This document shows positions 1-52,002 of a stretch of 64,000 nucleotides of DNA, piece by piece. The translations under genes were made by a program, and so were the position numbers. Where the stretch lies: IMG/VR virus record IMGVR_UViG_3300031857_000029. One strand, written 5' to 3'. The DNA is from a virus. The stretch's first letter is position 1. Every line of letters starts with the position of its first letter. The notes below the pieces were generated by a model, which was given only the letters and a program-made list of their open reading frames with translations, was not told the DNA's origin and searched no databases.

Positions 1-9
1 AGAATCACC

Positions 10-303: not shown

Positions 304-306
304 GAC

Positions 307-370
307 TTGACATTTTGGAAAACTCCGTTATATTTATGGTACCCAACCCTCTAAATATAGCGGAGTTTTT
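307..370 (+). promoter_or_regulatory. sigma70-like promoter overlapping an inverted repeat
   Basis: TTGACA 307-312, TATATT 329-334; AAAACTCCG...CGGAGTTTT inverted repeat. Confidence 0.55.
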
Positions 371-373
371 TCA

Positions 374-538: not shown

Positions 539-552
539 GGTTGTCGTTTTTC
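518..552. terminator. bidirectional intrinsic terminator
   Basis: AAAACGACAACC / GGTTGTCGTTTT hairpin between convergent genes. Confidence 0.75.
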
Positions 553-553
553 T

Positions 554-2644: not shown

Positions 2645-3462
2645 AGTAGGTAGTCCAATACTTCGTTTGTGGATTTTTCTTCCTTAAACCCGTGATATAA
2701 TAGAACTTTACTAGAGTCATGTATATACTCCCAATCAGCTCCAGTTTCGTCTAAATTCTTTCCAAGTCGCGTGTCAGCTACAGCAGACTCTTCAGTTAAT
2801 TTAACAGTATTGATGTCGTGAGTGTTTACGAATATAAATCCTAAACTCTCAGTACCTCCGCGTTTCCAAATACAAACATTAAATGAAGTTTCATCGTGAA
2901 ATGGGTAATACCACTTGCGTCTAGAAATTAGATACTCATTCTTACACATAGAAGTGTATTCTTCAAAGAACTCTTGACAGTTTCTATTGAATACATAGAA
3001 GCACGACCACTGGTATCGCACAGACTTATCTTCTACATTAAAATACTTCATTAATAGCTTTTCATTGTACTCTTGGTAGTTACTTCCATCGGCGTCACGT
3101 GACCAAATAAACGGTAATTCGTGTGGTCCGAACACTCCCAACGCATAGTTGTGATTATGTTTTAGTTTATGAAAGTCCATCCGATGAGAGAAGAGTATGT
3201 CTGTATCTGTGAAGATGAAGTCTTGCTCATCTGGAAACATTTTCATTACATCTAACGACAATTCTGCCTTGTAATAATGGAATGTAGGATAGTTTCTTTC
3301 TGGAATCGGTACTTTTATTAAGTTTTTAGTTTCAAAGGAACTAATGAATCCTATCGTAAAATACACTACTTTAATATCATCGGTCAGATGTGGTTTCATT
3401 GACTTGATACAAGTAATTGCCTGATGTTCGCAAACTTTATTTGTATATAAAAATATAACCAT
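2635..3462 (-). CDS. putative GT-A (GT8-like) glycosyltransferase
   Basis: FTDTD DxD motif, HDETSFN, C-terminal YHG; inside the GT operon. Confidence 0.65.
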   Translation of the reverse strand: MVIFLYTNKVCEHQAITCIKSMKPHLTDDIKVVYFTIGFISSFETKNLIKVPIPERNYPTFHYYKAELSLDVMKMFPDEQDFIFTDTDILFSHRMDFHKLKHNHNYALGVFGPHELPFIWSRDADGSNYQEYNEKLLMKYFNVEDKSVRYQWSCFYVFNRNCQEFFEEYTSMCKNEYLISRRKWYYPFHDETSFNVCIWKRGGTESLGFIFVNTHDINTVKLTEESAVADTRLGKNLDETGADWEYIHDSSKVLLYHGFKEEKSTNEVLDYLLCE

Positions 3463-3463
3463 T

Positions 3464-5440: not shown

Positions 5441-5472
5441 ATGTATAAAACCTTTAATTAAAAGTTAATATG

Positions 5473-6726: not shown

Positions 6727-6800
6727 ATTGAATACTCTCTGTATTAATTATTAATTATAATACTTCTATAAATATCTGTCAAGTGTACATTTGTATTTGT

Positions 6801-7334
6801 TTAACATGCTGATGTATCGCAAAAACCATTACAGCATGCACCAGAACAACAGGTTGAACCATCAATACAAGCGTCCCCCAGCGGAGAACACAGCGTACAG
6901 ATTTCAGTCGCAGTTATAGTACCATTAGTAAAGGTATAACAAGTTTGTCCAGAGAATGTACCACCAGAACATGCGGTTGGAGGAATAAACTTAGTGTTTA
7001 TCAAGGTAGTACATACATTATCGCCCGTATAATATAATGAATTAAAACTATATACTGAAACGTTGCAACTTACTGCACCATTACATATATTATAACAAGT
7101 GTCCCCAGTTTTACCATCTGCAAAGAACGAAGCCTTTTTACTGTGGTCGTAACTCCACCATTCACTTATTGCATCTGGATTGGTTGGTGTTGGATATGGA
7201 TTTTCACAGTTTTGAATTGGACTAAAAAACCCATCCGCTGCGCGACCAATATCAAAACCAGGCTGTGAAGGCACACCAAGTTCTATTCTTATTTGATTAA
7301 AACTAATTAAATTCCCAGTACTTGGTAATACCAT
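6801..7334 (-). CDS. Cys-rich putative fibre tip/adhesin-associated protein
   Basis: N-terminus LPSTGNLISFNQIRIELG resembles phage fibre-accessory proteins; Cys-rich C-terminus; directly follows the fibre gene. Confidence 0.6.
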   Translation of the reverse strand: MVLPSTGNLISFNQIRIELGVPSQPGFDIGRAADGFFSPIQNCENPYPTPTNPDAISEWWSYDHSKKASFFADGKTGDTCYNICNGAVSCNVSVYSFNSLYYTGDNVCTTLINTKFIPPTACSGGTFSGQTCYTFTNGTITATEICTLCSPLGDACIDGSTCCSGACCNGFCDTSAC

Positions 7335-7337
7335 AAC

Positions 7338-10121: not shown

Positions 10122-10209
10122 AGATTCCTAATAAATCGTTATAAAATACACTCCCTATAAATATCTGATTATAACGGGTTTATCCAATTATTACCCTATT
10201 ACGGACCAA

Positions 10210-10232
10210 AATCTTAATGAAATCTTAATGTT
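10210..10232 (+). promoter_or_regulatory. 23-bp tandem-repeat operator copy 1
   Basis: AATCTTAATGAAATCTTAATGTT, identical to 14211-14233 and reverse complement of 25728-25750. Confidence 0.75.
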
Positions 10233-10296
10233 CATGCACTTTACTTTTTCTTCTATTATAGTAGATTTATAGTATACCTCTTAACCACGGGATTTT

Positions 10297-12441
10297 ATGA
10301 CCAAGCACAAAGCACACAGTTCCTATTGGGTTGACGATACTTCCGTCTTTGATTTCGATACGGAGGATGTCAATAAGGATGAGCTTGACGTTTCTGCGGG
10401 TATTGACCGTATCGTGAAGCTTGCTACGATTCGTCGAGCTGTTGCCAACTTCGTTCGTATTCTCACGAATGATTCTTCTATTCATGTTAAGTATTCGTCA
10501 GGTCGGGATTCATACACCGATGGTAAGACGGTGGTGATTTCGGCTGACCACAATACTTCAAACTTTGACCCGATGGTTGGTCTTGCTTTGCATGAAGGGT
10601 CGCACTGTCTCCTTTCTGATTTCGGTTTCCTTCGTGCGATTAATCAACATCACGAAGTGTTCTACTCTGCGCTTCATCCCGACCTTCGGAAGTTGGTGAA
10701 GGTGAAGGCGGTTCGTGACGGTAATTATGATGTTTATGACAACATGCGTGAGAATCAGGCTATTCTCAATACACTTCGTCGGTATATTCAGCAGTTGATG
10801 AATATCATTGAGGACCGCCGTATTGATTCGTATGTGTATCGTTCGGCTCCTGGCTATCGTCCGTACTATGATGCGATGTATAAGAAGTATTTCTTTAATT
10901 CTGATGTGGAAAAGAATCTCCAGTTCAATCCCGACTGGCGTAAGCCGACTGTGGAGAATTATGTGAATTGGCTTCTTATGATTTTCTCTCCGCACTTTGA
11001 CAAGAAGGCGTTGCCGGGGCTGTCCAAGATGGTAGATATGATTGACCTCCAGAACATTCGTCGTTTTGATGAGAAGCATATGCCGGATTCTATCCGATGG
11101 AAGAAGTCTGGTGCGGTTGTATCCAATCCTGTTGCTGATAATGAACTTGTTGTTTACCATTATGACCAGTTCCCGCTTCTGTGGAAGACTGCGAACGAGC
11201 TGATGGTGGAGATTCTCAAGCGCGCCAAGTTCTATGCTGACCAAGAGGATGAGAACAATTCTGGCGATGATGGAATGGATGGTATTCCTATTGAGATGGA
11301 AGATGATGGCAAGGAGCTGGAGGGTGAGGGGATGCCGAATTATGACCTTCCACAGAAGAAGTTTAATGCGGGTAGGGGTAAGAAGGCAATGGAGAAGATG
11401 AAGGACATTCAGAATCAGACTGCTCGTAAGAAGAAAATTAAGAAGAATGAGCAGACGCAGATTGAGTCTATGGAATCTGCGGCGGCTGAAATGTCGGAGA
11501 ATTCTGACCCGATTTATGGAAAGGTTCCGTGCCTCGTTACGAAGAAGCTCACGAAGGAAATTATGAAGTCGGATTGGTTCCCATTTGCGAATGTGTGGGC
11601 GTTTAGTGGTGATGGTACGTGGCGCGACTCTGACCGTAACCAGACCTATCGTGGATTCCTTGCTGGGATTCGTATGGGACAGGTTCTCGCTCATAAGTTG
11701 CAGGTTCGTAACGAGCCGCAGATTACACACTTTACTCGTCAAGAGCATGGGAAGATTGACCGCCGTATCCTCTCGCAGTTGGGAATGGATATTGAGAATG
11801 TGTTCAAGCGGACTACGGTTGATTCGTACAATCCGGCTCTTCTCTATCTGTCGGTGGATGCCTCTGGTTCGATGTGGGGTGGCAAGTGGGAGCGTGTGAT
11901 GACGGTGATGACGGCTCTTGCCTTCGCCGCTGATAAGATTCGTAATCTTGATGTGGTGATTTCGCTCCGTGGAAATGTCGGTAGTGGGATTCCGACTGTG
12001 GCGGTTGTGTATGATAGCCGTGTAGATACGTTCGTCAAGGCGAAGGCACTGTTCCCATACCTTGCGTCTAACGGTTCTACTCCTGAGGGATTGTGCTACC
12101 ACAGCACGATTGAGTTGATGCAGGAGTGTGTCAAGACGCACACGGTATACTTCATCAACTTCTCTGATGGTGAGCCGGGGTGCTCGTTCAGCCACAACGG
12201 AAAGCGGTTTGACTATGGTGGTGAGCAGGCGATGAAGCAGACCAAGAATACGGTTCGTATCATGCGTGAGATGGGGATTCGTATTATGAGTTACTTCATT
12301 AGTGACTATCATTCTCACAATGAGTCCTACACGACGAAGTTCTTCCGCAATATGTATGGGCAAGAGGCGGAGTTCGTGGATGTAAAGAATGTGGTGAATG
12401 TTCTTAAGACCTTGAACAAGCTCCTACTGATTAAGGAATAA
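10297..12441 (+). CDS. vWA-domain protein with N-terminal HExxH metallopeptidase-like domain (CobT-like MoxR partner)
   Basis: LHEGSH, NIIEDRRID; MIDAS VDASGSM, STPEG, FSDGEP. Confidence 0.85.
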   Translation: MTKHKAHSSYWVDDTSVFDFDTEDVNKDELDVSAGIDRIVKLATIRRAVANFVRILTNDSSIHVKYSSGRDSYTDGKTVVISADHNTSNFDPMVGLALHEGSHCLLSDFGFLRAINQHHEVFYSALHPDLRKLVKVKAVRDGNYDVYDNMRENQAILNTLRRYIQQLMNIIEDRRIDSYVYRSAPGYRPYYDAMYKKYFFNSDVEKNLQFNPDWRKPTVENYVNWLLMIFSPHFDKKALPGLSKMVDMIDLQNIRRFDEKHMPDSIRWKKSGAVVSNPVADNELVVYHYDQFPLLWKTANELMVEILKRAKFYADQEDENNSGDDGMDGIPIEMEDDGKELEGEGMPNYDLPQKKFNAGRGKKAMEKMKDIQNQTARKKKIKKNEQTQIESMESAAAEMSENSDPIYGKVPCLVTKKLTKEIMKSDWFPFANVWAFSGDGTWRDSDRNQTYRGFLAGIRMGQVLAHKLQVRNEPQITHFTRQEHGKIDRRILSQLGMDIENVFKRTTVDSYNPALLYLSVDASGSMWGGKWERVMTVMTALAFAADKIRNLDVVISLRGNVGSGIPTVAVVYDSRVDTFVKAKALFPYLASNGSTPEGLCYHSTIELMQECVKTHTVYFINFSDGEPGCSFSHNGKRFDYGGEQAMKQTKNTVRIMREMGIRIMSYFISDYHSHNESYTTKFFRNMYGQEAEFVDVKNVVNVLKTLNKLLLIKE

Positions 12442-30380: not shown

Positions 30381-30465
30381 GGACAGGTGGCAGAGTGGTC
30401 TATTGCAACGGTCTTGAAAACCGTCGAGCTGAGAGGCTCCGAGAGTTCGAATCCCTCCCTGTCCG
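30381..30465 (+). tRNA. tRNA-Ser(TGA)
   Basis: Cloverleaf, long variable arm, loop CTTGAAA. Confidence 0.95.
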
Positions 30466-30471
30466 TACAAT

Positions 30472-30553
30472 GCGTTCGTGGCGTAATTGGTAGCCGCACC
30501 AGCCTTAGGAGCTGGCGCCTCACGGCGTGGGGGTTCGAGTCCCTCCGAACGCA
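30472..30553 (+). tRNA. tRNA-Leu(TAG)
   Basis: Loop CTTAGGA, long variable arm. Confidence 0.95.
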
Positions 30554-30555
30554 TT

Positions 30556-30628
30556 GCCACGATAGCTCAGTTGGTAGAGCACTCGATTTGTAATCGAGAG
30601 CGCATCGGTTCAAGCCCGATTCGTGGCT
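30556..30628 (+). tRNA. tRNA-Thr(TGT)
   Basis: Loop TTTGTAA. Confidence 0.95.
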
Positions 30629-30635
30629 CTGGTAC

Positions 30636-30707
30636 GCCTTGATAGCTCAATGGTAGAGCATGTGACTCTTAATCACCAGGTTGTAGGTTCGAGTCCTACT
30701 CAGGGCA
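30636..30707 (+). tRNA. tRNA-Lys(CTT)
   Basis: Loop CTCTTAA. Confidence 0.93.
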
Positions 30708-30723
30708 TTTCAATGGAGGTTAT

Positions 30724-30834
30724 ATGATAAATGTAATTCTTGGAGTAGTTACAATCATTATGTTAGTATTTACAATCGGTTCTGCGTTTCTCGCAAGTGA
30801 AGAAAAAGAAGAGAGGTATCGTTCACGTGAGTAA
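30724..30834 (+). CDS. small single-pass membrane protein (36 aa)
   Basis: GGAGGT RBS; hand-read MINVILGVVTIIMLVFTIG... Confidence 0.55.
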   Translation: MINVILGVVTIIMLVFTIGSAFLASEEKEERYRSRE

Positions 30835-30931
30835 TATAATTTTCTATGGTATCTGTATATTCTTTCTACTACTCAGTATATGGACAACTATTTCAGTTAA
30901 TCATCGGTGGGGTCGTAAGAAGTAATTTGTT

Positions 30932-31003
30932 GCGGGTGTAGCTCAGTGGTAGAGTCCGTGCTTGCCAAGCACGTTGTCGTGGGTTCGAATCCCATCGCCC
31001 GCT
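30932..31003 (+). tRNA. tRNA-Gly(GCC)
   Basis: Loop TTGCCAA. Confidence 0.95.
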
Positions 31004-31019
31004 CTTATAGGAGAACAAT

Positions 31020-31114
31020 ATGACAGCAGCAGTAATTACATTTTTATTTATTGCGATATCAATTGGATTGGCAACTTGGTATATCGCAAAATTTTTAGAG
31101 AAAGGAGAGTTCTA

Positions 31115-31115
<1 letters not shown>
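31020..31115 (+). CDS. small single-pass membrane protein (31 aa)
   Basis: AGGAG RBS; hand-read MTAAVITFLFIAISIG... Confidence 0.5.
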
Positions 31116-31302
<187 letters not shown>

Positions 31303-31308
31303 TAACAT

Positions 31309-31382
31309 TCCTCGGTAGCTCAGTTGGTTAGAGCGGGTGACTGTTAATCACTAGGTCGGGGGTTCAAGTCCCTCCCGGGGAG
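31309..31382 (+). tRNA. tRNA-Asn(GTT)
   Basis: Loop CTGTTAA. Confidence 0.95.
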
Positions 31383-31402
31383 TTTTAATTTAGGAGAGTG
31401 TT

Positions 31403-31696
31403 ATGCCAATTCGTAAGACCAAAGAGTTACTAGAAATGAAACCGATTGAATTAACGGAAACTGCAGAGCACCGTATCCACAGAAGGAAGTGGTGGGCAAT
31501 TTTGATTTTGATTATCGGCGGTGTAATGTTAGCAGGAAAGCTTCCAGTTCCGTACTCACTTGCATACGCATTGTTACTCTTCGGTCATTTAGGAATGTTA
31601 CATACATTCTATGACAAACGTGACATTCCAATGATGGTCGTGAATGCAGTCTGGGTATTTATTGACGCGGTTGGAATGTATCGGTGGTTTAACTAG
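31403..31696 (+). CDS. membrane protein (about 3 TM)
   Basis: AGGAG RBS, hydrophobic segments. Confidence 0.65.
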   Translation: MPIRKTKELLEMKPIELTETAEHRIHRRKWWAILILIIGGVMLAGKLPVPYSLAYALLLFGHLGMLHTFYDKRDIPMMVVNAVWVFIDAVGMYRWFN

Positions 31697-31766
31697 GTCC
31701 ATAGTGTAATTGGCAACACAACAGTCTCCAAAACTGTTTTTCTAGGTTCGAGTCCTAGTGGGCCTG
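31695..31766 (+). tRNA. tRNA-Trp(CCA)
   Basis: Loop CTCCAAA. Confidence 0.95.
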
Positions 31767-31788
31767 CCTCACCTCAACTAAAAAGGTT

Positions 31789-32223
31789 ATGAAAAAACTA
31801 GTATTGTTGTTAACACTGATTGGCTGTTCTACAAAGTCACCAACTGAAGTTGTTAATGAACCATACATAAGATTTGCTAAAAATCTAGACTCATTAGCAA
31901 TTATCAGAAATGTACAGACATTCAAGCCGTTAGAACTTCAAACAAACTTACCAGACCAAACCAAAGTTATATGGGAATCTGATATTTGGGTAAAGGTTAG
32001 AGTTGGTGTGGATTCATCTTATATAACAAATCGATTGACGATTAATTGGCCGTGGGTAGATACGGTCACTACCGTTAATTGTTGTTCATATAGCTATAAA
32101 GGTTATGCGAAAAGCGTGTTTGGTGCATTTGAAATTATGCGAGGACAAACTGCAACTATCATAGCATCAACGAAAGTAGGAAAAAAAGTATTAGCAGATA
32201 CTATAAAAATTGTTATGTATTAA
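31789..32223 (+). CDS. putative lipoprotein
   Basis: MKKLVLLLTLIGC lipobox. Confidence 0.7.
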   Translation: MKKLVLLLTLIGCSTKSPTEVVNEPYIRFAKNLDSLAIIRNVQTFKPLELQTNLPDQTKVIWESDIWVKVRVGVDSSYITNRLTINWPWVDTVTTVNCCSYSYKGYAKSVFGAFEIMRGQTATIIASTKVGKKVLADTIKIVMY

Positions 32224-32226
32224 GTT

Positions 32227-32301
32227 GGGGTGGTGGCGCAATTTGGTTAGCGCACCGCACTGTCACTGCGGTGGTTGCGGGTTCGAGTCCCGTCCATCCC
32301 G
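32227..32301 (+). tRNA. tRNA-Asp(GTC)
   Basis: Loop CTGTCAC. Confidence 0.95.
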
Positions 32302-32325
32302 TTCCCCTTGACGAAGGAGTGTATT

Positions 32326-32520
32326 ATGAAGCGTGTATATTTGAGTAGTACCGAAAACAAAATCGCCGGAGTGTGTGGCGGATTCGCAGAAACACTAGGA
32401 ATCGACCCAACACTTATCAGATTACTTTTCGTTGCCGCGTTTCTCTCCCCACTCCCTGCAGTAATTTTTTATCTCTTGTGTTGGATGGTTATTCCAAGAG
32501 ATCCAGGTTACACCAAGTAA
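32326..32520 (+). CDS. pspC: PspC-domain membrane protein
   Basis: KIAGVCGGFAETLGIDPTLIRL...YLLCWMVIP. Confidence 0.85.
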   Translation: MKRVYLSSTENKIAGVCGGFAETLGIDPTLIRLLFVAAFLSPLPAVIFYLLCWMVIPRDPGYTK

Positions 32521-32523
32521 GAC

Positions 32524-32597
32524 GGCTGGGTAGCTCAGCTGGTTAGAGCACGGCACTCATAATGCCGGGGTCGCCGGTTCAAGTCCGGCCCCAGCTA
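32524..32597 (+). tRNA. tRNA-Met(CAT), elongator type
   Basis: Loop CTCATAA, no initiator features. Confidence 0.9.
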
Positions 32598-32614
32598 TTG
32601 ACATAGGAGGATTT

Positions 32615-32806
32615 ATGTATTATATTACTTACAATGGGGTAGTGACCCCACATCCGTATCAAACCCGTGAAGATGCGATTCATGAATTGAAGAGCACCTT
32701 TGGTGACCTTGAACTTGATAAACACGATATTGCGTTTTGGCCAAGTGTATCAGCTCGGGGAAACACAAAGATTGAAATTAAACGATACGATGGTGAAATA
32801 GAATAA
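32615..32806 (+). CDS. hypothetical protein
   Basis: AGGAGG RBS. Confidence 0.6.
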   Translation: MYYITYNGVVTPHPYQTREDAIHELKSTFGDLELDKHDIAFWPSVSARGNTKIEIKRYDGEIE

Positions 32807-32890
32807 GGGAGTGCCGCAGAGTTGGAGGACTGCAGCAGACTGTAAATCTGCCGTCAATAGACCTAGTTGGTTCGAATCCATCCACTCCCA
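32807..32890 (+). tRNA. tRNA-Tyr(GTA)
   Basis: Loop CTGTAAA, long variable arm; C at position 8 and a T-stem mismatch. Confidence 0.85.
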
Positions 32891-32893
32891 TAT

Positions 32894-32967
32894 ACACCAG
32901 TAGCTCAGCTGGTTAGAGCATTCGTCTGATACACGAAAGGTCGCTAGTTCAACTCTAGCCTGGTGTA
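32894..32967 (+). tRNA. tRNA-Ile(GAT)
   Basis: Loop CTGATAC. Confidence 0.92.
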
Positions 32968-32970
32968 CTT

Positions 32971-33044
32971 GCTCTTGTGGCGTAATTGGATAGCGCAATT
33001 GATTTCTACTCAATGGGTTGGGGGTTCGAGTCCCTCCAGGAGCG
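32971..33044 (+). tRNA. tRNA-Arg(TCT)
   Basis: Loop TTTCTAC. Confidence 0.93.
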
Positions 33045-33049
33045 CTTAT

Positions 33050-33123
33050 GGTGATTGTAGCTCAGCTGGTAGAGCAGCGGATTGTGGTTCCGCGGGTCGC
33101 GGGTTCGAGCCCCGTCATTCACC
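33050..33123 (+). tRNA. tRNA-His(GTG)
   Basis: Loop TTGTGGT, encoded G-1, C73. Confidence 0.95.
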
Positions 33124-33128
33124 CCTCC

Positions 33129-33201
33129 GCTTACATAGCTCAGTTGGTAGAGCACCACTTTGGTAAAGTGGAGGTCACCAGTTCAATCCTGGTTGTAAGC
33201 T
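33129..33201 (+). tRNA. tRNA-Thr(GGT)
   Basis: Loop TTGGTAA. Confidence 0.95.
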
Positions 33202-33202
33202 T

Positions 33203-33427
33203 ATGAAACTAACTGATGCTGAAAATCATAAAAAATTAACGGTTATAGAACTTCACGATACGCCATATGAACAGAAATTGCGTATACTAGGATTCAAAGA
33301 AGGTTGTGAAGTATGTCCGTTGACGAATAATGGTTCTTCTATGATTGTTGGTGTTGATAATTGTAGATATGCAATAGGAAAAGAAATTACAGACTGTATT
33401 TTAGTAGAACAATTACCGCCCTTATAG
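33203..33427 (+). CDS. feoA: FeoA-domain protein
   Basis: MKLTD...QKLRILGFKEGCEV...IVGVDNCRYAIG..I.V pattern. Confidence 0.7.
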   Translation: MKLTDAENHKKLTVIELHDTPYEQKLRILGFKEGCEVCPLTNNGSSMIVGVDNCRYAIGKEITDCILVEQLPPL

Positions 33428-33490
33428 TTCAATTGGATAGAGCACTAGTCTTCGGAACTAGGAATGTGGGTTCGAGTCCTGCTAGGGGCA
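33418..33490 (+). tRNA. tRNA-Arg(TCG)
   Basis: Loop CTTCGGA. Confidence 0.92.
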
Positions 33491-33498
33491 TGTAAATT

Positions 33499-33705
33499 AT
33501 GAAAAATAAAATTCAATATAACACAGACAATCTTGTAATCGTAGATACACCCACAGAACAATGGCAGATGGAGATTACAGAATATAATAAACGTGGATAT
33601 TCGGAAAAGATAATAAGCGAAATGACTGACGAAGAGTTTATAGAACAAGGTTGGAAATGGATACGTGGAGATTGGGCATGGGAAGGAATGGGACACTGGC
33701 CTTGA
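33499..33705 (+). CDS. hypothetical protein
   Basis: ORF between tRNAs. Confidence 0.45.
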   Translation: MKNKIQYNTDNLVIVDTPTEQWQMEITEYNKRGYSEKIISEMTDEEFIEQGWKWIRGDWAWEGMGHWP

Positions 33706-33740
33706 CAAAAAAATAATAAGTTAATATATTTAGTGTATTA

Positions 33741-33813
33741 CGGGGAGTAGCTCAGTTGGTAGAGTGCACGCTTTGGGAGCGTGATGTCGCAGGTTCGAGT
33801 CCTGTCTCCCCGA
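33741..33813 (+). tRNA. tRNA-Pro(TGG)
   Basis: Loop TTTGGGA. Confidence 0.95.
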
Positions 33814-33834
33814 CTAACTCATAAAACGGTTGAT

Positions 33835-34854
33835 ATGATAGAAAAACTTACACGGTATACAATATTTAATTCAAATAATTCGTGGATATTGACCACGGAG
33901 AAAATAGCATCTTCTTGGTTAAAAGGACAATTTGACTTTAATTATACAGAAATATTCATAGATAGTTACACATATGAACTACGTCACATAAAAAGAGATT
34001 CATACCTAGACGTTTCTGAATCGGTACACAATGAGTTACAAGTAAAGTTTTCGCATGATTGGAATAAATTTGTAAACGGAAGTAATGAATATAATTTTAT
34101 ATTTTTTATTAGAAATCCAGTTAACAAATTTATGACAGGATGGGTTCAAGATTTCGTTATTAGAAAATTGAACGTTGGGTTTATTGAGCAAGAAATAGAA
34201 AGGTTATCCAAACATTTTTATCACAAAGATGTAGATAAATTTATTAACTACGCGTTAAAAGAAAAGCAAGAGGGTGGTGACAGATTCCCAGAAGTAGATT
34301 CTATACCATTTGAATTTAAAAACATTTTTAAAGAATTTTGTTTTCCTTCTAGACATCACGAAAACTTTTTCCATACTGAAGCAAGCGTTTTAATAGAACA
34401 TACAAGGTCTGGGCACATACCAGAAAATTTGTATCTGCTGTGGAAATTGTTATTCAAGAAACCATTTGAATTTAATAATGATAATTTGTATGTCTTGGAC
34501 ATTGATTTGGAAGATACTAAGTCTGTACTAGAAAATAAATTTAATATTCCAGCAAATAAAGATGTTGACAAATACGTTAGACATCCATATTTTAAAACTA
34601 GGACTTATGATTATTTATCAAAAGAATATGTTATCATAAATGCTTTGTTAGAAACAGAAATATTTTTTTGGTTTGAAATAGTTTCTAAGTTATATCCATC
34701 AATATCGCAATTTGCATCAACCTCTGTACCAAAATATAAAGAGAGATTTTATATACCCAATGAGTTAGAGTTTTATGATTTAGAAACTCATATGAACTGG
34801 TGGAAATATGAACCGCCCGAAACTTGGTTAAAATACACAAAAAATACATTATGA
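33835..34854 (+). CDS. possible sulfotransferase-family protein, very AT-rich
   Basis: EKIASS (5'-PSB-like) and FIRNPVNKFMTG (3'-PB-like). Confidence 0.5.
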   Translation: MIEKLTRYTIFNSNNSWILTTEKIASSWLKGQFDFNYTEIFIDSYTYELRHIKRDSYLDVSESVHNELQVKFSHDWNKFVNGSNEYNFIFFIRNPVNKFMTGWVQDFVIRKLNVGFIEQEIERLSKHFYHKDVDKFINYALKEKQEGGDRFPEVDSIPFEFKNIFKEFCFPSRHHENFFHTEASVLIEHTRSGHIPENLYLLWKLLFKKPFEFNNDNLYVLDIDLEDTKSVLENKFNIPANKDVDKYVRHPYFKTRTYDYLSKEYVIINALLETEIFFWFEIVSKLYPSISQFASTSVPKYKERFYIPNELEFYDLETHMNWWKYEPPETWLKYTKNTL

Positions 34855-35006
34855 AAAGTAAAGATAGACTTCCAACAATTATTGCAGTAACAGCGCTGAT
34901 TATTTATTTGGTGTTTCTTTTCGTCATAACACGGTCCAGTACAGAGGAACCACTGGAAGGTGGAGATATTCAGCGAGCAATAGAAACAGACCAATACAAG
35001 TAAGTT

Positions 35007-35081
35007 GGGCGGGTGGCAGAGAGGCCCAATGCAAGAGTCTGCAAAACTCTAAAACCGCGGGTTCGAATCCCGCCTCGCCCT
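35007..35081 (+). tRNA. tRNA-Cys(GCA)
   Basis: Loop CTGCAAA, U73. Confidence 0.95.
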
Positions 35082-35089
35082 TTTATACT

Positions 35090-35362
35090 ATGGTACCAAA
35101 ATACATAATTAAAACTCCTGTATATCAATACGCAAAATCATATTATCATATAGACGTATTAGATGGTAGATATGAAGGATTACAATTTAATTTTTCAAAA
35201 ATTGAAATAATTAATGATGGTGAGGATAAAAAGTTAAGTTTTCAATATAATTTATTAAGTATTCCGCAGGAAATTGAAGTAGATGAAGAACTTGAACAAG
35301 TAGTTAGTGATATATTACAACACATTATTGAAAGAGGTTATTATGAATTTGACACCAAATGA
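35090..35362 (+). CDS. hypothetical protein
   Basis: ORF in operon. Confidence 0.6.
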   Translation: MVPKYIIKTPVYQYAKSYYHIDVLDGRYEGLQFNFSKIEIINDGEDKKLSFQYNLLSIPQEIEVDEELEQVVSDILQHIIERGYYEFDTK

Positions 35363-35597
35363 TAAGTTGAAGTTAGAAGGAGCACTGAAAGATATGTCTA
35401 CTTCTATGACCAGAGTAGAAGCAGAACGTGACCTTCAAAAGAATATTATTGGAGATATTTGCGAAGAACTCAATCTCAACAAGAAGGTATTCCGTAAGTT
35501 AGCCAAGGTGTACCACAAGCAGAACTTTGATGACGAAGTAAATACCCATCACGAATTTGAGAAGTTATACGAGACTGTAACTAACAAGTCCAAGTAA
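35343..35597 (+). CDS. T4 DsbA-like dsDNA-binding protein
   Basis: SMTRVEAERDLQK...KKVFRKLAKVYHKQNF...FEKLYETV. Confidence 0.75.
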   Translation: MNLTPNDKLKLEGALKDMSTSMTRVEAERDLQKNIIGDICEELNLNKKVFRKLAKVYHKQNFDDEVNTHHEFEKLYETVTNKSK

Positions 35598-35605
35598 AGT
35601 AGTTG

Positions 35606-35690
35606 GGACAGTTGGCTGAGTGGTCTAAAGCAGGAGATTACTAATCTCTCGTACCGAAAGGTACCGTGGGTTCGAATCCTACACTGTCCG
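35606..35690 (+). tRNA. tRNA-Ser(ACT), A34 anticodon
   Basis: Ser-type body (long variable arm, G73); stem GGAGA/TCTCT, loop TTACTAA. Confidence 0.9.
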
Positions 35691-35715
35691 TTCACCATTC
35701 ATAATAGGAGATATT

Positions 35716-35826
35716 ATGACAATTCGTAAATCACATTCACGTAAAATAAAGGCAAAGGGTGGCGGAACCAGACGAGTTACTGTTAAATCCGCATTTGTTA
35801 AAACTGGTAAGAAGAAACGTAAGTAA
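35716..35826 (+). CDS. small very basic peptide (36 aa)
   Basis: AGGAG RBS; MTIRKSHSRKIKAKGGGTRRVTVKSAFVKTGKKKRK. Confidence 0.6.
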   Translation: MTIRKSHSRKIKAKGGGTRRVTVKSAFVKTGKKKRK

Positions 35827-35937
35827 TTAATAATATGTAAAAATTGTCAAATTTATACAAAAATTACATATTATTAATTTAAATACTATATATTAAGGTG
35901 GGACTTGACAAGCAGGCTCTCTTTGTATATCTTTAAG

Positions 35938-36160
35938 GTGTTGAGTGTTTGACAAGTGAAGGGAAGTAGTTATGGAACTATCCGGGGTCGGACAACCCCC
36001 CGCTCCATTTGACCCCTCGTTGTTGAGATGCCACCATAACGGCACGGGGAAGTTTCCGACGAGAAGCGCTGTCAATTGCTGAGACAAACATATAGTGAGG
36101 ATGACACTATATGATAATAGATAGGTTCCTCCCTAACCCAATGGGAGGATTTTTCATCTC
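35938..36160 (+). ncRNA. putative structured non-coding RNA
   Basis: TTGACA promoter at 35905; nested complementary segments; no plus-strand ORF in the track. Confidence 0.45.
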
Positions 36161-36168
36161 TAGGAGTT

Positions 36169-36252
36169 GCTCCTGTGGTGGAATCGGTATACACAACAGA
36201 CTTAAAATCTGTCGGCCTTACGGTCTTGCGAGTTCGAGTCTCGCCGGGAGCA
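36169..36252 (+). tRNA. tRNA-Leu(TAA)
   Basis: Loop CTTAAAA. Confidence 0.95.
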
Positions 36253-36268
36253 TGGTTATAAAATAGAA

Positions 36269-36341
36269 GGGCCTGTAGCTCAGCTGGGAGAGCGCCTGAT
36301 TTGCATTCAGGAGGTCATCGGTTCGATCCCGTTCAGGTCCA
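36269..36341 (+). tRNA. tRNA-Ala(TGC)
   Basis: Loop TTTGCAT, G3:U70. Confidence 0.95.
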
Positions 36342-36381
36342 CTTGACAAACATCCCTTAGTGTAGTATACTTAAGAAGTAC

Positions 36382-36455
36382 GCTCCTATAGTGTCAACGG
36401 TTAGCACAAGAGACTTTTAATCTTTTAGGTCTAGGTTCGAATCCTAGTGGGAGCA
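36382..36455 (+). tRNA. tRNA-Lys(TTT)
   Basis: Loop CTTTTAA. Confidence 0.92.
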
Positions 36456-36458
36456 TAA

Positions 36459-36532
36459 CCGCGAGTAGCTAAATGGTGAAGGCAGCCGCCTTATATGCGG
36501 AAGATATGGGGGTTCAAGTCCCTCCTCGCGGA
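36459..36532 (+). tRNA. tRNA-Ile(TAT)
   Basis: Loop CTTATAT, A73. Confidence 0.85.
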
Positions 36533-36537
36533 CTGTC

Positions 36538-36611
36538 GGGCCGTTAGCTCAGTCGGTTAGAGCACGCGACTCATAATCGTGCGGTCCTGGGTTCAAGTCC
36601 CAGACGGCCCA
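36538..36611 (+). tRNA. tRNA-Ile2(CAT), lysidine type
   Basis: Body GGGCCGTTAGCTCAG...GCGACTCATAATCG resembles Ile2 rather than Met. Confidence 0.8.
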
Positions 36612-45801: not shown

Positions 45802-46815
45802 ATGATTAAACATGCTGATGTAATTGTAGATTTACAAGCAGGTGATACGGGTAAAGGTAAGGTTGCTCATGCACTTGCTAAAAATTATGACCTGATTTTT
45901 CGGTATAACGGTGGGTCAAATGCTGGTCACACGGTGTATCACGATGGGAAGAAAGTCGTAACTCATCTTGTTCCTATTGGTGTATTGTTTGGTATTCCAA
46001 GTATTATTGGATTAGGATGTGTGGTCAATATTCCCAAGCTAATGGAAGAGATTCGTGATTTACAAGCACAAGGAATCAAGACAGACGGATTAATTTTTGT
46101 TGATAAGCGAGCACACGTAGTGTTCGGATATCATATAGATGAAGATACACGGGATTCTAAAATCGGAACAACTCGTCAAGGTATCGGTCCAGCTTATCGT
46201 GACAAGTACTCCCGTCAAGGAACACGTATTGGTGATTTGGACACAAGTTCCATAAAAGATTTTAGTGTCATTGATACTTATGAATTGTTCCACAACAAAC
46301 ACAACGATTGGCGTATCTTGTGTGAAGGGGCACAAGGATTTCAGATTGATATTGATTGGGGTGACTACCCATATGTGACAAGTTCACATTGTACTGTGGG
46401 GTCGGCAATCTTGAATGGAATTTCACCACGCCGTCTTCGTCATATCTATGGAATTATGAAGGCATACGAAACCTATTCAGGGTTCAAGACCACATTCCAA
46501 GATGAAAATGACTCAGACCTTCAAAAAATTCAAGAAGCAGGTGGTGAATTCGGTGCTACTACTGGCCGGAAGCGGAAGGTTCGTTGGTTAGATTTAGATG
46601 GCGTTATTAAAGCCGCCAATATCAATGGTGTTACCGACTTAATTATCAATAAAGCAGATATTTTGGCTCAAGTCGGTGTATTCAAATATGTCTATGGTGG
46701 AGTAGTGTACGAAGTTCTAACATTAGACGAATTCAAAGCGCAAATTAATGATATTCTATATGAGTATACCGATGTAGAAGAAATTGTATGGTCAATGACC
46801 CCGAACGGAATTTGA
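45802..46815 (+). CDS. purA: adenylosuccinate synthetase, short form
   Basis: QAGDTGKGK, GGSNAGHT, GTTRQGIGPAY, EGAQG, GATTGRKR, NKAD. Confidence 0.9.
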   Translation: MIKHADVIVDLQAGDTGKGKVAHALAKNYDLIFRYNGGSNAGHTVYHDGKKVVTHLVPIGVLFGIPSIIGLGCVVNIPKLMEEIRDLQAQGIKTDGLIFVDKRAHVVFGYHIDEDTRDSKIGTTRQGIGPAYRDKYSRQGTRIGDLDTSSIKDFSVIDTYELFHNKHNDWRILCEGAQGFQIDIDWGDYPYVTSSHCTVGSAILNGISPRRLRHIYGIMKAYETYSGFKTTFQDENDSDLQKIQEAGGEFGATTGRKRKVRWLDLDGVIKAANINGVTDLIINKADILAQVGVFKYVYGGVVYEVLTLDEFKAQINDILYEYTDVEEIVWSMTPNGI

Positions 46816-46822
46816 GGTTTTT

Positions 46823-47668
46823 ATGGTAAATGTTGGAGTGATAGGACTTGGTTATGTGGGAACAGCTGTTTTTAAGGGATTTGAAACAATTACTAAAGTT
46901 CGTACATACGATATAGCTAAAGAATGTACAGAACAATCTATTGGTGAGGTAGCTAATAAATCACAAGTAGTATTCATCTGTGTTCCAACACCGATGAATC
47001 CAGATGGAACATGTAATACGAACATTGTAGAAACAGTTTTACAAGAAATATCAACTACAAACCAGTCAGAAAGTGCATCACCGATTTGTGTACTGAAATC
47101 AACTATCACTCCTGGTACAACAAAGAGACTTGCGAAACAGTTCCCAAATCTAACCATATGCTTTAACCCAGAATTTTTGACAGAAAAGAATTATATCAAT
47201 GATTTCTTGTCACAAGTCAATGTTATTTTAGGATATGTCAATAACGCTAGAGAAGTTAGAGTTGTTAATGATTTGTACAGAGAACGATTCGGTGAAGCAA
47301 ATATAATAATCATCAATTCTGATGAAGCCGAAATGGTTAAGTATGTTGCAAATACATTCCTTGCCACAAAGGTTGCCTATTTGAATGAAATTTGGCAAAT
47401 CTGTCAAAAGACGGGAATCAATTATGACCATATGATTACCGTGTTGAACCAAGATGAACGGCTGGGAAGTACTCATTGGAACGTGCCTGGGCATGATGGA
47501 AAATTTGGGTTTGGCGGTACGTGTTTTCCAAAAGATATAAATGCCTTAATTCAATTTGGAAATACAAACGGACAAAACACCCCGTTATTAAATGCGGTGT
47601 GGGAGAAAAACCTCGAAATGCGTCCCGAAAGGGATTGGGAATTGGACAAAGGTAGGGCTGTAATATAA
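46823..47668 (+). CDS. UDP-glucose/GDP-mannose dehydrogenase family, lacking C-terminal domain
   Basis: GLGYVG, CVPTP, KSTITPG, NPEFL, GFGGTCFPKD. Confidence 0.85.
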   Translation: MVNVGVIGLGYVGTAVFKGFETITKVRTYDIAKECTEQSIGEVANKSQVVFICVPTPMNPDGTCNTNIVETVLQEISTTNQSESASPICVLKSTITPGTTKRLAKQFPNLTICFNPEFLTEKNYINDFLSQVNVILGYVNNAREVRVVNDLYRERFGEANIIIINSDEAEMVKYVANTFLATKVAYLNEIWQICQKTGINYDHMITVLNQDERLGSTHWNVPGHDGKFGFGGTCFPKDINALIQFGNTNGQNTPLLNAVWEKNLEMRPERDWELDKGRAVI

Positions 47669-47730: not shown

Positions 47731-47804
47731 GGGTGGTTAGCTCAGTTGGTTAGAGCATCTCGTTTACACCGAGAGGGTCGGGGGTTCGAGTCCCTCACTA
47801 CCCA
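47731..47804 (+). tRNA. tRNA-Val(TAC)
   Basis: Loop TTTACAC. Confidence 0.95.
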
Positions 47805-47805
47805 T

Positions 47806-47877
47806 GCGAGTGTCATATAACGGCTATTATCCTAGCCTTCCAAGCTAGAGACGCGGGTTCGACTCCCGCCACTCGCT
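47806..47877 (+). tRNA. tRNA-Gly(TCC)
   Basis: Loop CTTCCAA. Confidence 0.93.
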
Positions 47878-47881
47878 CTTT

Positions 47882-47963
47882 GCTCTTGTGGTGGAATGGT
47901 ATACACGGAAGTCTCAAAAACTTCTGCCCTAAAGGCTTGTGAGTTCGAGTCTCACCGGGAGCA
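47882..47963 (+). tRNA. tRNA-Leu(CAA)
   Basis: Loop CTCAAAA. Confidence 0.95.
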
Positions 47964-48006
47964 CTTGACAAATTTGAATTGGTTGTTTATATTTATATTT
48001 CTATAC

Positions 48007-48078
48007 GCCGCGTTCGTCTATCGGCTAGGACGCTAGACTTTCACTCTGGTAAGACGGGTTCGATTCCCGTACGCGGTA
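48007..48078 (+). tRNA. tRNA-Glu(TTC)
   Basis: Loop CTTTCAC. Confidence 0.95.
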
Positions 48079-48099
48079 TGAATATTCACGGAGTCAAAT

Positions 48100-48192
48100 A
48101 TGCCACATCCAAAAAAGTGCGGAAAGGGTCGTCGTAAGATTGGCTCAAAGAAACGCAACAATCGTTGGAAAAATAGAAAGCGTAAACATTAG
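48100..48192 (+). CDS. small very basic peptide (30 aa)
   Basis: GGAG RBS; MPHPKKCGKGRRKIGSKKRNNRWKNRKRKH. Confidence 0.55.
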   Translation: MPHPKKCGKGRRKIGSKKRNNRWKNRKRKH

Positions 48193-48418
48193 TACTATCC
48201 GAGGCCTTTTCCCTACCTTTCACCTCGTTAACAGCCTTTGGGCGAATGGAAAGACTTTTAAAAATGATAGGGCGGGTTCTAGGGTCGTTAGGCCTAGAGA
48301 CGTTTTGGCTAGTTTAGTATGGAAACTAGCAGGCGGTTTGGGGAAGCTTGACGAAGTGGTGTGTCCGCCTATATATTTTTAATGAGTGAGCTGATATCTC
48401 ATAACACATCCCCCGCAT

Positions 48419-48489
48419 TGCCCTCTCGTTCAATGGCAGGACGCCAGGCTTTGGACCTGGCTATCGTGGTTCGAATCCACGGGGGGCAA
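48419..48489 (+). tRNA. tRNA-Gln(TTG)
   Basis: U1-A72, loop CTTTGGA. Confidence 0.92.
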
Positions 48490-48530
48490 CTTGAAGTAGG
48501 TTACATTTTACCCTTTATGGAGAGTACACC

Positions 48531-48722
48531 ATGTACAAGTTCATTCTCGCAGTAGCAGTAATCAGTCTTTCAGCATGTGCAGCAAAGGAAGAAGTTCAAG
48601 GTGAAGTTGCAGCTGATTCAACAGTTGTAGCACCAGTTGTTGCAGATTCAACCAAGATTGATACCGATTCAATCAAGTCACCAGAAGTAAAGCCAGTAGT
48701 AGAAGGCGAAGCAGCTAAGTAA
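48531..48722 (+). CDS. small lipoprotein
   Basis: LSAC lipobox, GGAG RBS. Confidence 0.7.
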   Translation: MYKFILAVAVISLSACAAKEEVQGEVAADSTVVAPVVADSTKIDTDSIKSPEVKPVVEGEAAK

Positions 48723-48756
48723 TATTTCGGACTGTGGCTAATACCCACAGTCTCCT

Positions 48757-48827
48757 GCGGTTCTAGTGTAATAGATAGCACGGTAGGCGTCCAGCTTACA
48801 GGTCCGGTGCAACTCCGTGGAACCGCT
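48757..48827 (+). tRNA. degenerate tRNA-Gly(TCC)-like RNA
   Basis: Acceptor GCGGTTC/GAACCGC plus U73, D arm, stem GTAGG/CTTAC with loop CGTCCAG, T loop TGCAACT. Confidence 0.7.
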
Positions 48828-49051
48828 CTTAAAGGGATTCTGTCTTTTCGATGGAATCCCTTTTCACCTAAAAGGAGGTTATTATGCATCCAAACGAACT
48901 AAATGTATTACAGAACACAGAATCTTTTATGGAAGAAGCAACAAAACTTGGGGAACGATACGTTGAAGCCCTAAAAGACCAGATTTCTCGTCAAAAAGAA
49001 AGAAAACAAAAGTAAACTGATATTTAAATAAGTCTACATTTTGGAGCGGTT

Positions 49052-49498: not shown

Positions 49499-49832
49499 GG
49501 GCCCGACCGGTTTCGACGGGATGTAGATGACTAGATTTTGTGTCCAGTTTAGTAATACTGGTAAAACAGACTAAAAATTTCAACTGGCAATCAATTAGCC
49601 CTCGCTGCGTAAGCAGCCTGACGAAGTAATCTGACCCACATAGGGTTACTATCGTTCATAACTGTGGTGTAGTATCGGAGAGATGAGTTGGTATCTGATA
49701 TCAAATTTACAAACTCTTATCCGTGTGGTTTCGCTGATTATTCAAAACACGGAAACATCTAACAATCAGCTACACACATAAACATTTAGTAGGAAGCAGT
49801 CTCGGACCAGGGTTCGACTCCCTGCGGGTCCA
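49499..49832 (+). ncRNA. ssrA: tmRNA
   Basis: 5' GGGCCCGACCGGTTTCGAC, 3' GGACCAGGGTTCGACTCCCTGCGGGTCCA with G3:U70; tag ORF GNQLALAA* at 49586-49612. Confidence 0.95.
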
Positions 49833-49868
49833 CTAATAGTTACGAATCACAATTTTTTTGGAGAACTT

Positions 49869-51378: not shown

Positions 51379-52002
51379 ATGGTTACGGAAGAGCAACTTA
51401 AAGAACGGTACGAGAAGTTTCTAGAGTTTGTCAAAGCTGACGAACGTTCTGAGCAACTTCTCGCAATGTACGAAGATTTCAGTACGGAGTTGACCACCGC
51501 TCCGGCTGCAGGTAAAACCTATTTTCATAATGCGTTTCCCGGCGGATATCTTGACCACGTGGTTCGGGTGACGGAAACAGCACTCCAGCTGGCGTCGGTA
51601 TATAAGAAGATTGGCGGTGATATAGACTTCACCAAGCAAGAGCTGGTGTTCGCTGCGCTTCATCACGATTTGGGTAAGCTAGGTAATCCAGTTGAAGGGC
51701 CATATTATGTTGACCAAGATTCGGATTGGCACCGTAAACGTGGTGAAATGTACAAGCAGAACGAAAACATTCAATATATGAAGGTTCCCGACCGCGCCCT
51801 CTATCTTCTTCAACACTATGATATCAAGATTACACAGAAGGAATGGATTGGTATCAAGTTGTCCGATGGTATTTATGATGAGGGAGCAAAGTCGTATCTG
51901 ATTAACTACGCTCCATATGCGATGAAAACCAACCTTCCTCGTATTATTCACTGGGCTGACCATATGTCTAGTCAATCAGAAAACGATAATTCACGATTTT
52001 AA
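51379..52002 (+). CDS. HD-domain phosphohydrolase
   Basis: H-NAFPGGYLDH, LHHDLGK, HWAD. Confidence 0.85.
   Translation: MVTEEQLKERYEKFLEFVKADERSEQLLAMYEDFSTELTTAPAAGKTYFHNAFPGGYLDHVVRVTETALQLASVYKKIGGDIDFTKQELVFAALHHDLGKLGNPVEGPYYVDQDSDWHRKRGEMYKQNENIQYMKVPDRALYLLQHYDIKITQKEWIGIKLSDGIYDEGAKSYLINYAPYAMKTNLPRIIHWADHMSSQSENDNSRF

Follow-up and report, generated by a model that had tools for sequence, protein, structure and literature searches.

A conserved phage tRNA-Gly with a bulged T stem, a candidate glycyl donor for the DNA-modifying enzyme Mom

Why would a phage carry a third tRNA-Gly when two others already decode every glycine codon? The question arises from a 64,000-nucleotide stretch of viral DNA (IMG/VR virus record IMGVR_UViG_3300031857_000029; the whole stretch is referred to below as the window), which encodes a tRNA-Gly(GCC), a canonical tRNA-Gly(UCC) and a deviant second tRNA-Gly(UCC), here called the odd tRNA (Table 1). 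As the first two cover all glycine codons, the third is redundant for decoding. The same trio occurs in each of the near-complete tRNA arrays, those of the window, of genome G002 (32 tRNAs) and of genome G004 (30 tRNAs); L and G numbers are our labels for related viral contigs and genomes, respectively. The odd tRNA is a genuine, selectively maintained phage gene that belongs to a discrete, phage-only family, and this family is a new, deeply conserved class of non-canonical tRNA even should the functional link discussed below fail. That link is to Mom. Judging from sequence, we give a chance somewhat under even to the proposal that this is a virus-encoded non-proteinogenic tRNA whose bulged T stem hides it from EF-Tu, its glycine being reserved for DNA hypermodification by Mom.

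Standard annotation misses this class of tRNA. ARAGORN at its default setting reported 29 other tRNAs in the window and not this one, and the Rfam tRNA model (RF00005; gathering threshold 29 bits) gave no match to it even at E ≤ 10 in a 181-base search; the 29 other tRNAs score 43-72 bits with that model. At a 95% threshold ARAGORN calls the window copy tRNA-Gly(tcc), and relatives with U at position 33 are called at default. The single-sequence fold of the odd tRNA is cloverleaf-like, with a modest z-score of -2.0.

A phage-only tRNA family with a bulged T stem

The identity set listed for bacterial glycyl-tRNA synthetase (GlyRS) comprises G1-C72, C2-G71, G3-C70, U73, C35 and C36 (PMC7826273). 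The first-pass annotation, made from the letters of the window, had remarked that GlyRS identity elements are kept in the odd tRNA. The window copy has all of them, together with the anticodon UCC, A37 and U8-A9, and the full set plus A37 is invariant in 20/20 distinct sequences spanning the two clades of the family. The deviations that the annotation had named as hallmarks fared unequally. The D loop indeed lacks GG in the window (AAUAGAUA) and does so family-wide, with a single G in both the clade-A loop (AAUAGAUA) and that of clade B (AACGUCA). The T arm of the window copy does read G-U-G-C where G-T-Psi-C is usual (loop UGCAACU), but G55 is limited to clade A; clade B has the canonical UUCAACU loop and an encoded CCA, so this trait does not define the family. 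G33 is likewise real in the window copy but is found in only 6 of 18 distinct clade-A sequences, the rest having U33 and no other base. G33 and U33 occur on two otherwise identical backgrounds (L006 versus L046 and L012 versus L016), and the G33 lineages kept gaining compensatory stem changes afterwards. What both clades share without exception, besides the identity elements, is the D stem, the GG-less D loop and a bulged T stem.

To find the family, viral and metagenomic contigs were scanned with patterns built on four different parts of the molecule: its 5' half, its 3' half, the core of anticodon and T loop, and the D arm together with the anticodon. It occupies ~ 50 loci of uncultured phage contigs (lake phages), often with unrelated flanks, as one copy per genome set within large tRNA arrays. 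When the pattern was anchored on the D arm and placed no demand on the T arm, the 17 viral contigs recovered were exactly the same ones, so the constancy of the T arm is not an artefact of the search pattern. A further scan, anchored on the neighboring tRNA-Gln as an unbiased denominator, recovered clade B (six contigs) and ~ 13 related contigs without the odd tRNA. Once chance matches were removed, clade A comprised 18 distinct sequences, and the covariation set comprised 20 distinct sequences of both clades. With a family covariance model, clade A scores 92-101 bits (the window copy, 100 bits) and clade B 69-71 bits; no other tRNA exceeds the 38-43 bits of the normal Gly(UCC) (41.7 bits for the window's normal copy). 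Cultured phages yielded no odd tRNA, only 20-nt chance matches. Two scans of ~ 186,000 prokaryote species genomes returned 0 and 112 matches, and none of the 112 forms the cloverleaf.

Across the 20 distinct sequences, 99.5% of the cells of the cloverleaf are paired, 10 of 20 pairs have changed on both sides, and all four stems covary. None of 500 shuffles matched this covariation, and sliding the partner columns by 1-3 positions reduced pairing to 36-49%. In 20/20 sequences the T stem has four pairs, and one nucleotide of its 3' strand is unpaired. In local numbering, T-stem pair 48-63 is C-G in 17 sequences, G-C in two and A-U in one, and pair 50-60 is G-C in 18 and A-U in two; the bulged base is U, A or G across the family. 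Standard numbering assigns the bulge to nucleotide 64 and leaves position 50 empty, hence there is no 50-64 pair. The first-pass annotation was therefore right that five T-stem pairs cannot form, but its description of a mismatched stem does not hold: the 5-bp mismatched stem, which is also ARAGORN's model, fails whenever position 63 changes, and the true form is the 4-bp stem with a single bulge. A 9/3 fold, suggested by single-sequence minimum free energy folding and by the allo-tRNAs of Mukai et al., fails in the same way. Its pairs 8-63 and 9-62 are broken, without compensation, in 3/20 and 4/20 sequences, respectively, and 8-63 is broken at every change of 63. Elsewhere the body keeps U8, A14, A21, G26/A44, the A15/U48 Levitt pair, U54/A58 and C56. 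From this sequence pattern it is plausible that the lone D-loop G can still pair with C56 and that the molecule adopts an L shape.

Four-base-pair T stems with a bulge have precedents, some of them in phage tRNA clusters: the 8/4 and 9/3 allo-tRNAs, the (8/4) tRNA-Ser and tRNA-His of phages, and selC* tRNA-Cys (Mukai et al. 2017, PMC5389517). Unlike the odd tRNA, these maintain a 12-bp acceptor branch through a longer acceptor stem, carry the bulge on the 5' strand (51a; A51a in selC*), and include none for glycine. The odd tRNA keeps a 7-bp acceptor stem and has its bulge at position 64, on the 3' strand, and covariation rejects the 9/3 pairing.

The body of the odd tRNA also evolves slowly. 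Outside the anticodon arm, per-site diversity across the 20 contigs that carry all four genes is 0.035 for the odd tRNA and 0.203, 0.130 and 0.121 for the normal Gly, Gln and Glu tRNAs (3.5-6 times less for the odd tRNA), although replacement by foreign tRNAs, rather than weaker constraint, may contribute to the higher values of the neighbors. Given that the deviations are conserved in related phages and that the stems compensate, the gene is not a decaying pseudogene, the outcome that the first-pass annotation had named as its refutation.

Two other elements resemble parts of the odd tRNA. Another tRNA-Gly(UCC)-like gene, reduced to 69 nt, occurs at L018:792-860 and in L022 (an 83-kb viral contig, G013). 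It has an acceptor stem GCGGGTA/TACCCGC, U73, an encoded CCA, a 4-bp D stem with a 3-nt loop, an anticodon loop UGUCCAA (G33), a T loop UGCAACU and a bulged A in the T stem. We rejected it as a family member, as it scores 28 bits with the family model, like a generic tRNA, and Mom is missing from its 91%-complete genome; convergence or very distant kinship may account for the likeness. The other element is minihelix-shaped (L023:6032-6091, L042:1413-1472), a 7-bp-stem hairpin with a UGCAACU loop inside a 7-bp acceptor-like helix. It occurs on an unrelated viral contig, scores weakly (24 bits) and is possibly due to chance.

Mom as a candidate consumer of the glycine

T-stem pairs 49-65, 50-64 and 51-63 determine how tightly EF-Tu binds a tRNA (Schrader & Uhlenbeck 2011, PMC3239215), and these are the very pairs affected here. 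Using the published table, the window's normal Gly(UCC) (GC/CG/GC) has a value of -0.6 kcal/mol, and the odd tRNA (CG / no pair / CG) has a value of at least +0.5 kcal/mol before the missing pair is counted. From the missing pair and this table we infer that the odd tRNA binds EF-Tu-GTP weakly. Weak EF-Tu binders that occur beside a normal copy have been singled out as candidate non-translational donors (PMC3239215). An abnormal T stem with a normal copy in the same genome suggests a specialized role in the phage case too; in the published duplicates only base-pair identity differs at the three positions, whereas the odd tRNA lacks the 50-64 pair altogether.

The closest functional comparison is with the staphylococcal non-proteogenic tRNA-Gly(UCC) species (NP1-3, and Ia/Ib in Staphylococcus epidermidis). 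In S. aureus, EF-Tu-GTP sequesters the proteogenic Gly-tRNAs and so acts as a competitive inhibitor of FmhB. The non-proteogenic tRNAs, which lack D-loop GG and have UGC or UGU in the T loop, escape, and features of their D and T arms are recognized by FmhB (PMC7826273). The likeness to these tRNAs, already pointed out in the first-pass annotation, is borne out: in both cases a redundant UCC isoacceptor sits beside proteogenic copies, keeps GlyRS identity and lacks D-loop GG, and UGC replaces UUC in the T loop (here in clade A only). Weak EF-Tu binding is expected from the T stem in both, and the consumer is a GNAT-fold aminoacyl-transferase, FmhB/FemA/FemB there and, as a candidate, Mom here. 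The differences are substantial. The odd tRNA is encoded by phages rather than by a bacterium, and no homologue was detected in cellular genomes. It has a bulge and a missing pair where the staphylococcal species have weak base pairs, and its candidate consumer modifies DNA rather than peptidoglycan, with no Fem-family consumer in related phage records. As the staphylococcal lineage is confined to staphylococci (PMC7826273), the odd tRNA is at most a functional analogue of these tRNAs and not of their lineage.

Mu Mom takes the glycine of Gly-tRNA-Gly and attaches it to adenine N6 in double-stranded DNA; a rearrangement then yields 6-NcmdA (Silva et al., Nat Commun 2026, PMC13219725). The enzyme is selective for tRNA-Gly, as glycine mischarged on tRNA-Ala is not used, and it superposes on FemX for tRNA binding; neither phage tRNAs nor EF-Tu competition is discussed in that work (PMC13219725). 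The lineage studied here encodes its own Mom, which we reached by walking outward along contigs that encode identical proteins. A 281-residue homologue in a collinear relative (L302:3445-4290) matches PF25680 and lies between a clamp-loader subunit and Phage_clamp_A, followed by a dCMP deaminase. Two carrier genomes have it, G002 of clade A (E = 6e-46, 153 bits) and G012 of clade B (E = 3e-48, 160 bits; PF25680 cut-off, 27.1 bits). Mom was found in every record that spans the clamp-loader module, in two copies in G012. In G018, which is collinear with window positions 1-12,000, it lies ~ 22.8 kb upstream of the window start.

When lineage Mom is aligned to crystallized Mu Mom (8bv8), the equivalents of H58, Y59, R111, S124, D149 and Y159 are kept and are invariant in five lineage homologues. 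R151 of Mu Mom aligns to Glu, which an alignment shift may explain. The five homologues also share ~ 40 strongly conserved residues at the C terminus (roughly residues 232-272), an extension with no counterpart in Mu Mom; loci with the extension include L302:3445-4290, L304:1471-2298 and L305:1342-2160 (minus strand). This extension might be a module that reads the frozen body of the odd tRNA. Thus the lineage resembles the Mu system in encoding a PF25680 Mom with catalytic residues, and the co-substrate that Mu Mom requires is glycyl-tRNA-Gly. It differs in that Mu encodes no tRNA and uses host isoacceptors, and in that lineage Mom is ~ 50 residues longer, bears the conserved extension and sits in the clamp-loader module of a ~ 190-kb phage. 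We know of no dedicated donor tRNA described for Mom. The second Mom-family match in the clade-B genome (L306, G012:138892-139473) is interrupted by two in-frame TGA codons, and could be a pseudogene, a sequencing error or a case of recoding.

The first-pass annotation had suggested looking for Fem or GNAT aminoacyl-transferases in the genome. The lineage does have one in Mom, but not the Fem, MprF or L/F families: FemAB, Acetyltransf_6, LPG_synthase_C, Leu_Phe_trans and Acetyltransf_1 (generic GNAT) were not found in five related records, one of them 89% complete. Mom is the sole recognizable aminoacyl-tRNA transferase found. In the same five records, PolyA_pol (the CCA-adding enzyme), tRNA-synt_2b (the class-II synthetase core) and GTP_EFTU (EF-Tu-type GTPases) were not found either; the search for RNA_lig_T4_1 was run without a positive control. 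The annotation had also proposed a dedicated glycyl donor for a non-ribosomal transfer, with DNA modification among the options. The use of Gly-tRNA-Gly by Mom (PMC13219725) makes that option concrete, with support that is circumstantial.

We therefore consider a scheme in which host GlyRS and the host CCA-adding enzyme would mature and charge the odd tRNA. With its disrupted T stem, the charged tRNA would be a poor ligand for EF-Tu, and a pool of activated glycine would escape the translation machinery. This pool would feed the phage Mom, a GNAT aminoacyl-transferase that would place glycine on N6 of adenine in double-stranded DNA; the product would rearrange to 6-NcmdA and protect the DNA from restriction. 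Such a supply could serve hypermodification of a ~ 190-kb genome late in infection, and would parallel the staphylococcal non-proteogenic tRNA-Gly that supplies FmhB/FemAB. We put the chance that the odd tRNA is a private glycyl donor for Mom, shielded from EF-Tu, at just below even.

Several observations weigh against this reading. All three Escherichia coli tRNA-Gly isoacceptors serve Mu Mom, which probably reads mainly the acceptor end (PMC13219725). As normal isoacceptors suffice for Mu Mom, the enzyme can do without a private tRNA; the odd tRNA would boost the reaction without being essential to it, in keeping with its repeated loss. Co-occurrence of Mom and the odd tRNA amounts to one lineage, as only G002, G012 and the lineage of the window span both loci, and it includes no informative negatives: other Mom-bearing contigs stop short of the tRNA array, and carrier contigs without Mom stop short of the clamp-loader module. 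The two genes are not adjacent but ~ 71 kb apart, and none of 31 Mom loci has a tRNA-Gly within 3 kb. Three cultured Mom-positive phages have canonical tRNA-Gly(UCC) only, and the look-alike of L018 and L022 has the same T arm in a 91%-complete genome without Mom. Two further cautions concern the tRNA itself. Foreign replacement among its neighbors, mentioned above, may exaggerate the apparent constraint on its body. In addition, tRNA-Pyl (no GG, no T-Psi-C) and selC* tRNA-Cys (bulged T stem) work in translation, so deviations of this kind do not prove exclusion from the ribosome.

Genomic setting and repeated loss

The odd tRNA appears to be the last gene of a short transcription unit within the array (Table 1). 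The normal Gly(UCC) that the first-pass annotation had placed upstream is present and canonical throughout. A sigma-70-like promoter precedes the unit, and in relative L005 an 11/12 promoter match ends 17 nt before the odd tRNA itself. The tRNA-Gln is followed by the odd tRNA in 44 of 46 family loci, and this order also holds in clade B. The small open reading frame between them has no Pfam match and is not conserved family-wide, yet it is kept in the non-carriers L274 and L278. The terminator scan leaves the downstream hairpin uncalled, its loop being 13 nt.

Table 1. Positions in the window of the odd tRNA, its arms and neighboring features
Feature	Position	Strand	Description	Basis
Deviant tRNA-Gly(UCC) (odd tRNA)	48757-48827	+	71 nt (70 nt plus discriminator U); CCA not encoded	Sequence, ARAGORN at relaxed threshold, covariation, family covariance model
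Acceptor stem of odd tRNA	48757-48763 / 48820-48826		Perfect 7 bp	
D arm of odd tRNA	48766-48781		Stem GUGU/GCAC, loop AAUAGAUA	
Anticodon arm of odd tRNA	48783-48799		5-bp stem, loop C-G33-UCC-A-G; anticodon 48790-48792, G33 at 48789	
Variable loop of odd tRNA	48800-48803		AGGU, short	
T arm of odd tRNA	48804-48819		C-G, bulged U at 48818, C-G, G-C, G-C; loop UGCAACU, G55 at 48809	
Canonical tRNA-Gly(UCC)	47806-47878	+	Proteinogenic counterpart; D-loop GG, GGTTCGA T loop, 5-bp T stem (GC/CG/GC at 49-65, 50-64, 51-63)	Rfam, 60.2 bits
Canonical tRNA-Gly(GCC)	30932-31004	+		ARAGORN, Rfam
Sigma-70-like promoter	48348-48377	+	TTGACG, 18-nt spacer, TATATT; ahead of the unit of Gln, small open reading frame and odd tRNA	10/12 matches
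tRNA-Gln(UUG)	48419-48490	+	Conserved upstream neighbor of odd tRNA	
63-residue open reading frame	48531-48722	+	Lipoprotein-like signal sequence; between Gln and odd tRNA	
8-bp hairpin	48730-48752	+	Directly upstream of odd tRNA; within the ~ 100-150 nt segment missing from non-carrier relatives	
10-bp hairpin with T-rich tail	48831-48867	+	Terminator-like; present in carriers and non-carriers; end of transcription unit	

The gene is dispensable and has been cleanly lost at least twice. Two non-carriers, G006 and G007, align collinearly with the window (78-88% identity), and only the ~ 100-150 nt segment with the odd tRNA is missing. In a tree of the flanks, the two non-carriers fall in different well-supported carrier clades, which implies at least two losses or recombination events. 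No partner gene near the odd tRNA was lost with it, as G007 is collinear with window positions 47.5-64 kb except for the tRNA segment. The idea that the gene serves translation supply was set aside, as glycine codon usage is ordinary.

The anticodon stem of the odd tRNA has a diversity of 0.365, evolving as fast as those of its neighbors. Among the ordinary tRNAs (window positions 30381-36611 and 47731-48490, and related loci), anticodon stems are hypervariable between related phages (0.16-0.55 versus 0.12-0.20 elsewhere), which fits selection by host factors that read the anticodon stem-loop. The arrays also include tRNAs with A34: a tRNA-Ser(ACU) at window positions 35606-35690, where GCU is expected, and a tRNA-Gly(ACC) at L007:4337-4410 and L011:6075-6148, where GCC is expected. 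A phage-encoded tmRNA (49499-49835; Rfam, 114 bits) follows the odd tRNA at a distance of 0.7 kb and is not called by ARAGORN; the tags in relatives are GNNQLALAA, ANNTLALAA and GNYNLALAA.

Other genes close to the tRNA cluster are an adjoining 337-residue adenylosuccinate synthetase (45802-46815), a truncated UDP-glucose dehydrogenase-like gene (46823-47668) and an HD-domain protein (51379-52002). The synthetase raised the idea of PurZ and Z-DNA, which we rejected because it is far closer to true PurA (E = 4e-59) than to PurZ (2e-15); this shortened enzyme is probably not a marker of 2-aminoadenine DNA. At the other end of the window, positions 554-10121 and ~ 19 kb upstream (L257, L260, L302) encode a very large glycosylation gene set, with several GT4, GT2 and GT7-like transferases, epimerases, FkbM-type methyltransferases and a heptosyltransferase-like domain. 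The set adjoins a 927-residue collagen-like fibre (26% glycine), and ThyX, a SpoU methylase and a PD-(D/E)XK nuclease are nearby.

Competing explanations and significance

So, is the odd tRNA a donor outside translation, or a tRNA that translates under attack? Phage tRNA arrays are now largely seen as countermeasures to host tRNA nucleases (PMC10264068, PMC11464382, PMC11555353), and the odd tRNA could be a translation-competent back-up tRNA-Gly(UCC) that escapes a host tRNA-targeting nuclease or toxin and keeps GGA and GGG, 44% of glycine codons, decoded. Its unusual elbow and T stem and, in some copies, position 33 would be the escape features. Position 33 adjoins the typical cut sites of anticodon nucleases and has switched between U and G at least twice on identical backgrounds, and anticodon stems turn over fast in all array tRNAs. 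The patchy spread, with at least two independent losses, is typical of counter-defence genes; the gene is co-transcribed with ordinary tRNAs, and non-canonical tRNAs can be translated. The known anti-defence tRNAs (T5 tRNA-Lys against PARIS, tRNA-Tyr against retron/PtuAB, and the anticodon-loop variants of mycobacteriophages) share the large array, the variation at position 33 and the patchy spread, but they are canonical in body and translating, whereas here the T stem and elbow deviate and a normal isoacceptor stands alongside. The phage's own normal Gly(UCC) could carry escape mutations itself. Moreover, the family-wide deviation falls exactly on the EF-Tu specificity pairs, G33 violates a near-universal requirement for decoding, and the body is more constrained than those of working neighbors. 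We know of no tRNA-Gly-specific nuclease that reads the elbow or T stem. On balance we regard defence evasion in translation as unlikely, though more probable than any other rival.

The altered EF-Tu and ribosome features, combined with intact acceptor-stem and anticodon identity, would also suit a decoy or sponge that, charged or not, acts outside translation to titrate a host factor that recognizes tRNA-Gly, such as a tRNase or a GNAT toxin of the TacT/AtaT2 type, which acetylates Gly-tRNA-Gly. TacT, which acts on Gly-tRNA-Gly (cited in PMC13219725), shows the kind of factor concerned; a strongly constrained body fits binding of one specific protein, and repeated loss fits an accessory gene. 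A stoichiometric decoy, however, would have to be expressed very strongly from its one gene copy, the host has no known target for it, and the lineage's Gly-tRNA-consuming enzyme would be left unexplained. We judge such a role improbable.

A shade less probable still is that the odd tRNA supplies glycine to another acceptor, whether cell envelope, lipid, glycan or protein, with the transfer made by a host enzyme or by a phage enzyme that escaped recognition. The structural arguments for a donor to Mom apply equally here, and the genome is rich in envelope and glycosylation genes. Against it stand the transferase families missing from the five related records and the position of Mom as the only recognizable aminoacyl-tRNA transferase found. 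A decaying pseudogene or chance cloverleaf, as might be read from the failure of default ARAGORN and Rfam, the fold z-score and the absence from some close relatives, is refuted by the covariation and conservation data (~ 50 loci, compensatory changes in four stems that continued in G33 copies, invariant identity elements, a body more conserved than those of functional neighbors, and promoters), and we give it next to no weight.

Few dedicated non-translational donor tRNAs are known, all from bacteria, and the dependence of Mom on tRNA was established only in 2026, with host tRNAs. Should the odd tRNA prove to be a glycyl donor for Mom, it would be the first case of a tRNA set aside for DNA modification, and viruses would have their first equivalent of the staphylococcal cell-wall tRNAs. 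Its scaffold of a 7-bp acceptor stem, a 4-bp T stem and a bulge at position 64 would be a natural means of evading EF-Tu, and the recognition of tRNA by Mom would become directly testable by experiment. Viruses would then partition the aminoacyl-tRNA pool between translation and the protection of their genomes.

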